A stretch of DNA of 13,924 nucleotides from Oligoflexales bacterium (GCA_044236265.1 JBIIGV010000075.1:1-13924); one strand, 5' to 3'; shown: positions 10,528 through 12,558, counted from the first letter of the stretch. Translations and numbers: made by a program. The notes: generated by a model not told the origin, from the letters alone.

Positions 10528-12558
10528 CTAGGTCAGGGGGGCGGCAAACTGCTTGTGGGTCAATATTTTTGACTCCCAGCCTGGTGCGGTATCCTCAGAG
10601 GCCGCACTGATTCCGTAGGGCATTTTTGCATCACTACGTTGCCATTTGCTCAACCATGTTTCGCCTAGGTAATTCCAATCAGGTTCAAGCTGTTTTGCAA
10701 GTTCGTTGAGTGCGACCGTTGTTTCGCTTTTGGGACCTGTAGCTTGACCATGAGCGACATAAAATCCAGCGGCGAGTAAGGCGGCCCGTACGGCTGTCGA
10801 CGTTGTGTATGTGAAAATCAATGCAGGTTGGTCTTTTAAACAGGCGTGTAGTTCTTCAAACGCTGTGAGTGTCCACAATGCACTATCTGTCTTGAAGGAA
10901 AATGGGTCAAAAAAGACAAGGTTTGCAGGTTCTGCTTTGAATTTTGTTTCTGCAAAGTCTCCTTCGAGCAGAATCCACTCAATGAGACCACAACGGCTGA
11001 TCCATCGCCCATCCTTTACGATGGACTCTGGCCCACCGTGGCGCAGATGCCGGAAAAGACCACGATGACCTAAGGACAGCTTCAAAGCATCCATGTCGTT
11101 TTCAAAGCTGATTAATTTCACTTTCCGCGGTCTAACGTCGGCCGGCACGGATTCAAGAGCATTAATCGCTGCCATCGCATTTGCAGCAGAGCCTAAACCG
11201 ACGTCCCAAATTACCAGAGGTGTATCTTCGGCGTTGCCAACGCGTTCCAGAAGCTTCGATTGCTCAACATAGAGTTCTCTAGCTTCAACTTCCGGATTGT
11301 TTACCGAATGCATAACTTCGCCAGACCTCACACAGCGAATGCGACCGATTCCGTCTTTTTCAACAATTTCGTATCGGCCTCTTGTGAGTTTGCGCTGTCC
11401 GCGCGCCTGTTTTGCGCCGATCACGGACTTGGGTCCGTAACTATCGTTTTGGCCGATGATCTGGCGTTGCTGTTGGTAAAACTCCATCCAAGTGTCAGCG
11501 AGGATGTGCTCGCGCATCTGACGCGTTAAAGTCAGGTAGTAATGGATATTATGAAGTGCAAGTAGCTGCCAGGCGCGTGTGTCGCGGACACGATTGATGT
11601 GATAGAGGTAGGCGAGGGAATATGTGTTACACGTGTAACAGCTGCAGGCCGGGTCTAGTGGGCCTTCTTGGTTGCGATATACGCCACGCCGAAGGTCACG
11701 CTTACCTAGAGTTGTAAATGCAACTCCTTGCTGAGCGAGGCTGCTTGGCAGAATACAATCAAACATGTCGATACCGCGATGCACGGCTTCCAACAAATCA
11801 AGGGGAGTTCCAACCCCCATTAAATAGCGAGGTCTGTCTTGAGGTAAGAGGTCCGTTACGGTGGCCGTGCAGTCTTCGCGTTCTGATTTTGTCTCACCAA
11901 CCGCAAGACCGCCCACGGCGTAGCCATCAAAAGGCATGTCAGATATTATTTTTGCGCTCTCAATGCGCAGGTCTTGATAGCAAGCTCCTTGCACAATGCC
12001 GAACAATGACTGCGGTGAATCACCGCGCGCTGCGAGGCTTCTTAGTGCCCAGCGATGAGTCAATTCCATCGCAGATTTAGCGATAGATTTTTCCACCGTT
12101 GATGGTACGCATTGGTCGAGAACCATCATGATGTCAGAGCCAATAAATTTTTGTGTCTCGATTGATTTCTCGGGACTCAGGCAGATTGTTTGATTGTCGA
12201 CATAGCTTTTGAAGTAGGCCCCTTCCTCTTTCATGACGCGAGAGTTGGGGAGACAAAAAATTTGAAATCCGCCCGAATCAGTCAATACTGAGCGAGGCCA
12301 CTTCATGAAGTTGTGGATGCCACCAAACTGTTGGAAAATCTCAACTCCCGGACGAAGTAATAGGTGATAGGTGTTGGCCAAAAGGACTTGAGCCCCTACA
12401 TCCAATAAATCTTCGCGGCTCTGGCTGCGTACCGAGGCATGGGTTCCCACAGGCATAAACGTCGGTGTTAAAACCTCGTTATGCAGCGTTTTAAACCGCG
12501 TTGCTCTTGCTCGCGATCCCGATGCTGTTTTTTCAAGGGTAAATGACAGTCTGCTCAT
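10528..12558 (-). CDS. tgt: Fusion protein: tRNA-guanine(34) transglycosylase (residues ~1-372) + MnmC2/MnmD-like SAM-dependent methyltransferase (residues ~393-676)
   Basis: TGT motifs: [23 protein letters not shown] (D94), [29 protein letters not shown] (D267), Zn site C305-x-C307-x2-C310...H336. C-terminal MnmC-type motifs: [15 protein letters not shown] (11179-11205), SFEND, GDF, FFDPFS.K...LW (FFDPFS 10897-10914), [20 protein letters not shown]. One uninterrupted reading frame. Confidence 0.92.

Follow-up and report, generated by a model that had tools for sequence, protein, structure and literature searches.

The closest described systems to the locus analysed here are the bacterial transglycosylase Tgt (TIGR00430), known from E. 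coli and Z. mobilis, the methyltransferases MnmC2/MnmD (DUF752, PF05430), represented by Aquifex MnmC2 (PDB 3vyw) and the N-domain of E. coli MnmC, and the phage pair DpdA and DpdM, which yields N-methyl-preQ1 (mdPreQ1) in DNA (PMC10516641). The latter source agrees with what the original prediction for this DNA had stated about N-methylated preQ1 in phages, the methyl group being placed there by DpdM, which is unrelated to our enzyme. The protein described below carries in one chain a Tgt, here called Tgt2, and an MnmC2-fold methyltransferase, here called MT-X. Tgt2 has the fold, the aspartate pair, the C158/V233 pocket and the zinc site of bacterial Tgt, but it forms a separate clade, occurs as an extra copy, has lost R286/R289, carries a D-Q-C-V-P-S-T loop and is tied to a methyltransferase. 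Likewise, fold and motifs are common to MT-X and MnmC2/MnmD, whereas MT-X forms a clade of its own with a C-terminal extension, scores below the NF033855 cut-off, is linked to Tgt2 and, in Oligoflexales, coexists with an MnmD-like gene. With DpdA and DpdM the likeness lies in the pairing of a transglycosylase with a preQ1 N-methyltransferase, putative in our case, and in the same proposed base. However, according to the accessible accounts of the phage system, DpdM is a metal-binding DUF3109 protein and not a Rossmann SAM enzyme, whereas MT-X belongs to PF05430, and DpdA acts on DNA and is far more divergent from Tgt than Tgt2 is; the fusion has neither so divergent a TGT nor DUF3109, and no DNA-metabolism cluster was found among the annotated neighbours. 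The domain pair itself is already catalogued in a preprint (bioRxiv 10.1101/2023.12.21.572861), which names TGT in one clause among four other types of MnmC2 fusion; its accessible text contains no test of the pair and no mention of a second paralog, an altered motif or a split operon, although further detail may be contained in its Supplemental data S3 and Fig. S1. The Tgt2 clade, its altered motif and the operon found in Myxococcota were not found in print, nor was a study of any of them found in the literature searched, which was mostly without subscription papers.

The window, a stretch of 13,924 nucleotides from an Oligoflexales bacterium, contains on its minus strand a single open frame of 676 aa (10528..12558) that matches Pfam and NCBIfam profiles of both families. 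The Tgt2 domain (aa 1-370; 11449..12558, minus strand; PF01702, TIGR00430) is a TIM barrel whose catalytic residues are D94 and D267 and which has a zinc site; it is followed by a basic linker of low confidence (aa ~371-392; 11383..11448, minus strand; pLDDT <50 at aa 376-385) and by the MnmC2-fold SAM methyltransferase (10531..11382, minus strand), assigned to the MT-X clade by alignment to 3vyw, fold and tree. The match to PF01702 covers aa 16-364 with 444 bits, and TIGR00430 gives 415.3 bits against a cut-off of 306.75, the canonical Tgt of the same genome reaching 513.4 bits. PF05430 matches aa 543-617 with 48.8 bits, and NF033855 (MnmC2) gives 61.9 bits, under its cut-off of 136. In the AF2 model (mean pLDDT 87.7, pTM 0.56) both domains are predicted with confidence, aa 376-385 of the linker appear disordered and the two domains have no fixed docking. 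The locus had been predicted to encode a complete TGT, with both catalytic aspartates, the zinc site and a Cys/Val pocket of the preQ1 type, fused to an MnmC2-like C-terminal methyltransferase without queA, yajC or secD beside it, and this description stands; none of the three genes lies in the window, since the fusion is a second paralog and not the main tgt. A sequencing error, which the original prediction had named as a possible refutation, is rejected as the origin of the fusion: contigs from four other lake-metagenome studies carry no indel (0/4), three of the four span the linker, and both Pfams occur together in the best 120 protein matches. The fusion is thus real, and it is common. 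Among 2367 protein matches to the domain, with lengths of 371-1183 aa, the best 120 all contain both Pfams, at least 561 GTDB loci carry the fusion, and the nearest named records are Oligoflexales MAGs. No RNA dataset carrying it was found among the sequencing runs searched.

We propose that Tgt2 and MT-X may constitute one two-step module operating alongside the ordinary queuosine pathway. Tgt2 would exchange a guanine in an RNA for a preQ1-type base, the likeliest position being G34 in the anticodon loop of a tRNA, and MT-X would put a SAM-derived methyl group on the nitrogen of the aminomethyl group, the product being 7-(methylamino)methyl-7-deazaguanosine (m-preQ1); methylation could occur either on the RNA or on the free base before insertion. 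We infer the activity, the base, the RNA target, the product and the order of the steps from the features presented below, and we give slightly less than an even chance to a coupled module that produces N-methyl-preQ1 in RNA besides Q, probably at a site passed over by the canonical Tgt. The larger share of this expectation, tentative in itself, goes to a target outside strict U33-G34-U35, and the smaller share, unlikely when taken on its own, to a subset of GUN tRNAs for which the module would compete with QueA. No report of m-preQ1 in RNA was found in the literature searched.

The active site of Tgt2 is intact. In a comparison of 107 fused, 4 unfused and 40 canonical Tgt domains, from which sequences of <345 aa and repeat loci were excluded, D94, D148, C150, Q190, G217, V220, D267 and the zinc ligands C305, C307, C310 and H336 were invariant in all 107 fused proteins. 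The zinc site, C305-x-C307-x2-C310 with H336, lies at 11551..11646, and the pocket motif GGLAVGE, in which V220 corresponds to V233 of Z. mobilis, at 11893..11913 (both minus strand); the latter is invariant in 132/132 fused rows and agrees, together with the equivalents of C158 and V233 and the GGhs pattern, with the consensus given for preQ1/queuine-type pockets (PMC10164549). The features of the PF01702 superfamily (TIM barrel, two catalytic aspartates, guanine pocket, zinc site) were all found, and Foldseek aligns the domain to Z. mobilis TGT with a TM(target) of 0.94, while identity to canonical Tgts is ~45%. The rim of the pocket is remodelled: the loop D148-Q-C-V-P-S-T154 (12097..12117, minus strand) differs, by row comparison, from the canonical D-E-C-T/P-P-Y-P, and at Z. 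mobilis position 161 serine is present in 144/158 Tgt2-type rows (rows in which either arginine discussed below is absent), as opposed to Y/W/F/L/H in 101/120 canonical rows. S153 of the fusion maps by alignment range to QTRT1 position 164, which touches the side ring of queuine, whereas V233 is described as barring queuine (PMC6165067); the retention of the V233 equivalent argues against queuine as the substrate of Tgt2 despite the remodelled rim loop.

The second alteration concerns RNA recognition. The segment formed by D267 and the following 11 residues (11725..11760, minus strand) contains the nucleophile and an altered RNA-binding helix, in which the arginines R270 and R273 of E. coli are replaced by S and Q. 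In this protein the motif reads P-S-S-L-A-Q-Q-G as compared with the canonical P-T-R-x-x-R-N-G, and the P-T/S-R-x-x-R signature that follows the nucleophile of canonical Tgts is lacking. An equivalent of R270 was found in 40/40 canonical and 0/107 fused proteins, one of R273 in 40/40 and 10/107, respectively; both arginines are also kept in all 68 readable canonical copies among the best 80 of 600 Tgt loci, the other twelve being Tgt2 (8) or unreadable (4). Position 288 is R in 107/107 fused proteins; R286/R289 (Z. mobilis numbering) are lost, and R291 is new and invariant. Xie and colleagues are said to have found in 2003 that R286 and R289 contact U35. The changed positions fall inside the beta8/alpha8 insertion, which helps to confer GUN specificity (PMC10164549), and Arg286 belongs to helix alphaB, lining the cavity between the R34 and P35 pockets (PMC5395182). 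The E. coli residues K285/K292/R320, which bind the tRNA stem (PMC13416341), have equivalents that vary in fused and canonical Tgts alike. The loss of both arginines from the helix that follows the nucleophile suggests that the target is probably not strict U33-G34-U35, and the usual GUN tRNAs, expected as targets by the original prediction, become doubtful. These changes in the GUN-specificity insertion and in the loop next to the 7-substituent, together with the invariant catalytic and preQ1-pocket residues and a low dN/dS, would favour the proposed module.

The same loss of RNA-contact arginines could be read differently, with Tgt2 as a non-reading heterodimer partner of the canonical Tgt, similar to QTRT2, that brings MT-X to newly inserted preQ1-34 on GUN tRNAs. 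In support of such a partner, Tgt2 keeps K/R at E. coli position 39, E/D at 323, Y317 and H320, positions which we take to be the Tgt dimer interface, and a canonical Tgt accompanies it in 81/82 genomes; canonical tgt is, however, near-universal in these groups regardless. QTRT2 has lost the catalytic aspartate and pocket residues (PMC6165067), whereas in 107/107 fused proteins both catalytic aspartates and every residue of the base pocket are unchanged, and we regard such a partner as improbable. On quick LG+G4 trees the fused Tgts are not grouped with canonical Tgts; a branch with an SH-aLRT of 100 sets them apart, and it persists after removal of the motif columns and addition of Myxococcota (78 rows). 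A dN/dS of about 0.015-0.03 in four close pairs demonstrates purifying selection. On these alignments and trees the fused Tgts make up a subfamily of their own, a second paralog beside the main tgt.

The methyltransferase half retains the equipment for methylating an aminomethyl nitrogen. Aligned to 3vyw, its motif I (D452-V-G-L-G-S-A-A-N460), E486, D534, D551-P-F553 and Y584 are the equivalents of motif I, E133, D174, D193-x-F195 and Y225 of the Aquifex enzyme, which have been tied to SAM binding and to deprotonation of the aminomethyl nitrogen (PMC3527978); the conserved DXF catalytic base for this deprotonation is consistent with the role that we propose for MT-X. Aquifex MnmC2 is the best PDB match by sequence (E 5e-7) and the best match by fold (Z 21.7, rmsd 3.2, 240 aligned), and E. 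coli MnmC2 is also among the closest folds. MT-X is nevertheless distinguished by a clade-specific C-terminal extension ending in H-x-Q-F and by the replacement of the basic G-R-K-R-H/E of MnmC2/MnmD by G-x-K-x-E-T-T. Judged by a tree of 81 rows, MT-X is its own clade (66 rows, support 99), apart from 13 MnmD-like proteins of Oligoflexales (support 98), in a tree that has E. coli MnmC2 as a long outgroup branch, lacks Aquifex and omits one candidate locus without a match. Purifying selection is again evident (dN/dS about 0.03-0.11, four close pairs). The main competing explanation is that MT-X is a divergent MnmC2/MnmD acting on nm5(s2)U34 and Tgt2 an additional Tgt whose own product stays unmethylated, their association being mere co-regulation of anticodon-loop enzymes. 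The nearest folds and the complete set of catalytic motifs speak for it, as does the preprint in its accessible part, which classes the fusion among MnmC2 fusions (bioRxiv 10.1101/2023.12.21.572861). The scores of 62-85 for MT-X proteins against the NF033855 cut-off of 136 speak against it, although this is a weak test, since the MnmD-like protein of the same genome itself scores only 89.9. The linkage of MT-X to Tgt2 also counts against this nm5U34 explanation, which we consider a doubtful one.

Tgt2 and MT-X are linked as an operon or a fusion across several phyla. Among 80 MT-X loci of Myxococcota, many of whose rows are close kin, MT-X is fused to a Tgt in 14, lies directly after one on the same strand in 42 and is found within 4.5 kb of one in 4, and the motif is of the Tgt2 type in all 59 readable loci of these 60. 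Of the remaining loci, 12 have no Tgt in their full flank (mostly Corallococcus) and 8 end too early. The operon form occurs in M. xanthus AM003, Archangium, Cystobacter, Pyxidicoccus and Nannocystis exedens DSM 71, while in two myxobacteria with large genomes MT-X is located ~10 kb from Tgt2 or on a different contig. Fused and split forms are interleaved on both trees, which suggests several events of fusion or fission. Records of Tgt2 come from Bdellovibrionota, Pseudomonadota, Verrucomicrobiota, Eisenbacteria, Myxococcota, Acidobacteriota and Riflebacteria, with a patchy occurrence (0/80 other genomes of one gammaproteobacterial family, 6/91 Verrucomicrobiae, 10/71 Myxococcota). This linkage in both operon and fusion form, with the Tgt2-type motif at the linked loci, supports the module, and the shared pathway that the original prediction had envisaged becomes plausible through it, through the amine-N-methylating motifs and through the preQ1 pocket, even if the replacement of QueA/QueG that was part of the same idea does not survive (see below).

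Losses and unlinked copies bear on this question in both directions. Five relatives carry a fusion without the second half of MT-X, with no downstream remnant in the four that were checked, and four of these five genomes hold a stand-alone MT-X, which supports the module. The truncated fusions at L126-L129 (G018, G015, G007, G017) are 564-574 aa long and stop before the DPF motif; G007 also has a third, unfused Tgt2. A further supporting case, and a single one, is a Verrucomicrobiae genome (G187) in which an extra tgt with R270->T, derived from its own canonical Verrucomicrobiae lineage, and a stand-alone MT-X are arranged head-to-head, with miaB following (L369:3953-7537), a normal tgt being present elsewhere in the genome. 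Against the module, and in favour of the nm5U34 explanation, each half is also found alone: a Tgt2 that is intact, unfused and unaccompanied by MT-X is present in G013, G030, G032 and G043 (94-97% complete), and stand-alone MT-X without Tgt2 in 12/12 Verrucomicrobiae checked, all 12 with queA, and in G008, G009 and G011 (66-87% complete).

The genomic complement of queuosine and wobble-uridine genes indicates what the fusion does not do. The source genome (88.7% complete) encodes a canonical Tgt of 373 aa, QueA, QueG, YhhQ, MnmG and a separate stand-alone MnmD-like protein of 255 aa; QueC, QueF, MnmM, MnmL and MnmC1 were not found in it, the E. coli MnmC1 query giving no match. Of the genes whose presence in the genome the original prediction had asked to check, a second, canonical tgt, queA, queG, mnmG and another mnmC-like gene are thus there, and mnmM was not found. 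Another Tgt is encoded elsewhere in 58/59 fusion genomes (fragmented in the assembly in six of the 58), the exception being G047 (86% complete), and in 81 of the 82 Tgt2 genomes overall, comprising 59 with the fusion, 4 unfused relatives, 5 Verrucomicrobiae, 10 Myxococcota and 4 more. queA is present in 57/59 fusion genomes and in 22/23 further carriers (79/82). The original prediction had proposed that the fusion is the organism's Tgt, with methylation replacing QueA/QueG maturation; this is chemically plausible and accords with the absence of queA from the window, but canonical tgt and queA are nearly always kept, queG is present in the source genome, and the fusion is not a replacement for queuosine synthesis. 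This possibility is hardly credible and was rejected. That Tgt2 is a single clade almost never without a second Tgt, for which it does not substitute, supports instead the proposed addition of a module to the queuosine pathway.

The supply of preQ1 is a point against the module. QueF was found in 29/34 fusion genomes outside Oligoflexales and in 5/5 Myxococcota, and in 0/25 fusion-bearing Oligoflexales relatives; QueC was not found in the five relatives searched for it, and YhhQ was found in 3/5. It follows that preQ1 must be salvaged there, a need that the canonical Tgt shares. Only 2/46 Oligoflexales genomes searched have QueF, though tgt, queA and queG are retained, and this scarcity, together with the two of five relatives without YhhQ, makes another salvage route for preQ1 or queuine likely. 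PF14489 matches in Oligoflexales are weak (<=30 bits, frames mostly ~190-260 aa) and presumably represent FolE.

Regarding the nm5U34 explanation, the same survey gives a mixed picture. In 30/34 fusion genomes outside Oligoflexales, all of them with MnmG, MT-X is the sole clear MnmC2/MnmM candidate, and in 5/5 Myxococcota it is the sole match to the MT-X profile, an observation that also counts against the module. However, 24/25 fusion-bearing Oligoflexales relatives encode an additional, weaker homolog (frames mostly ~250 aa), four of which were placed on the tree in a clade separate from MT-X; as a separate candidate for nm5U they would favour the module, and two Opitutae retain MnmM, the only genomes among 63 searched in which it was found. 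MnmL/YtqA was not found in 5/5 genomes. Moreover, PF05430 is absent from 73/91 Verrucomicrobiae, and no MnmC2/MnmD match was obtained in 80 other genomes of the gammaproteobacterial family to which G075 belongs, where mnm5U34 may accordingly be absent or made by an unrecognised enzyme. Since genomes without MnmC2 are normal in these groups, there is no gap for MT-X to fill, and the argument from its being the sole candidate is weakened.

The neighbourhood of the gene offers few indications. Clustering of neighbours at 155 loci, with ~14 neighbours annotated, revealed no partner shared across phyla except ABC-F genes, and no recurring mnmE/G/A was recognised among the annotated clusters, which is another point against the nm5U34 explanation. 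Some individual loci point towards it: miaB or trhO each lies beside one stand-alone MT-X, and mnmL/ytqA is located two genes from one fusion. Dus-like genes stand beside two fusions (with the mnmL/ytqA and trhO cases, the set L135, L137, L125). Genes for ABC-F-type ATPases adjoin Tgt2 in two phyla (L131, L134, L135, L169 and L170 of Oligoflexales; L364-L367 of Myxococcaceae; L019), one having scored as PRK15064-like ABC-F and the others being recognised by clustering or by eye; a link to ribosome stalling is possible. Within the window, a 400-aa protein without a Pfam/NCBIfam match is encoded at 12711-13913 (plus strand), divergently from the fusion gene, and a similar-looking divergent neighbour is seen in six close relatives. 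Downstream of the fusion on the same strand, 7883-10360 (minus) encodes an 825-aa S41 peptidase with weak CPAF-like similarity, and a neighbour of like size recurs in seven close relatives. A run of genes at 16-5902 (plus strand), for a GT2 glycosyltransferase, DUF2334, a 604-aa unknown protein and GH113, is probably a polysaccharide locus. The promoter scan gave 3 matches where 2.4 were expected, no better than chance.

The neighbouring genes are also relevant to the suggestion that Tgt2 and MT-X are coupled but act on something else, be it a different base (a salvaged 7-deazaguanine of larger size, for instance), an RNA other than tRNA or some other amine. The remodelled pocket rim, the exchange of G-R-K-R-H/E for G-x-K-x-E-T-T in MT-X and the flanking ABC-F translation factors in two phyla are compatible with this, and Tgt paralogs have switched target before, as in DpdA (PMC5699537). 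On the other hand, C150 and V220 are of the preQ1 type and invariant, neither DpdA-like extra domains nor DNA-modification genes were found among the annotated neighbour clusters, no relatives of the MT-X domain were found in viral contigs, and none of 72 plasmid records matched covers the whole fusion. We therefore regard a different substrate as unlikely and retain the N-methyl-preQ1 module as the preferred reading, bearing in mind that the AF2 model, with its pTM of 0.56 and undocked domains, would count against a tightly coupled pair.

It can be hypothesised, with a likelihood that we place somewhat below even, that bacteria of at least six phyla, including Myxococcus xanthus, possess an undescribed RNA pathway that places N-methyl-preQ1, a base recorded to date in phage DNA only, at a guanine outside U33-G34-U35, or on some of the GUN tRNAs, beside Q. 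If this is true, RNA would gain a new 7-deazaguanine nucleoside and bacteria a Tgt that follows different site rules, and phage DpdM would have a convergent counterpart as a second way to methyl-preQ1 chemistry. RNA-labelling tools could also profit from a Tgt whose sequence requirements are relaxed or shifted. The presence of the system in a cultured and genetically tractable host, M. xanthus, and also in Nannocystis, Archangium and Cystobacter, makes it directly testable. Even if MT-X should turn out to act on nm5U34, thousands of proteins annotated as 'Tgt' would belong to a separate subfamily whose function is only predicted.
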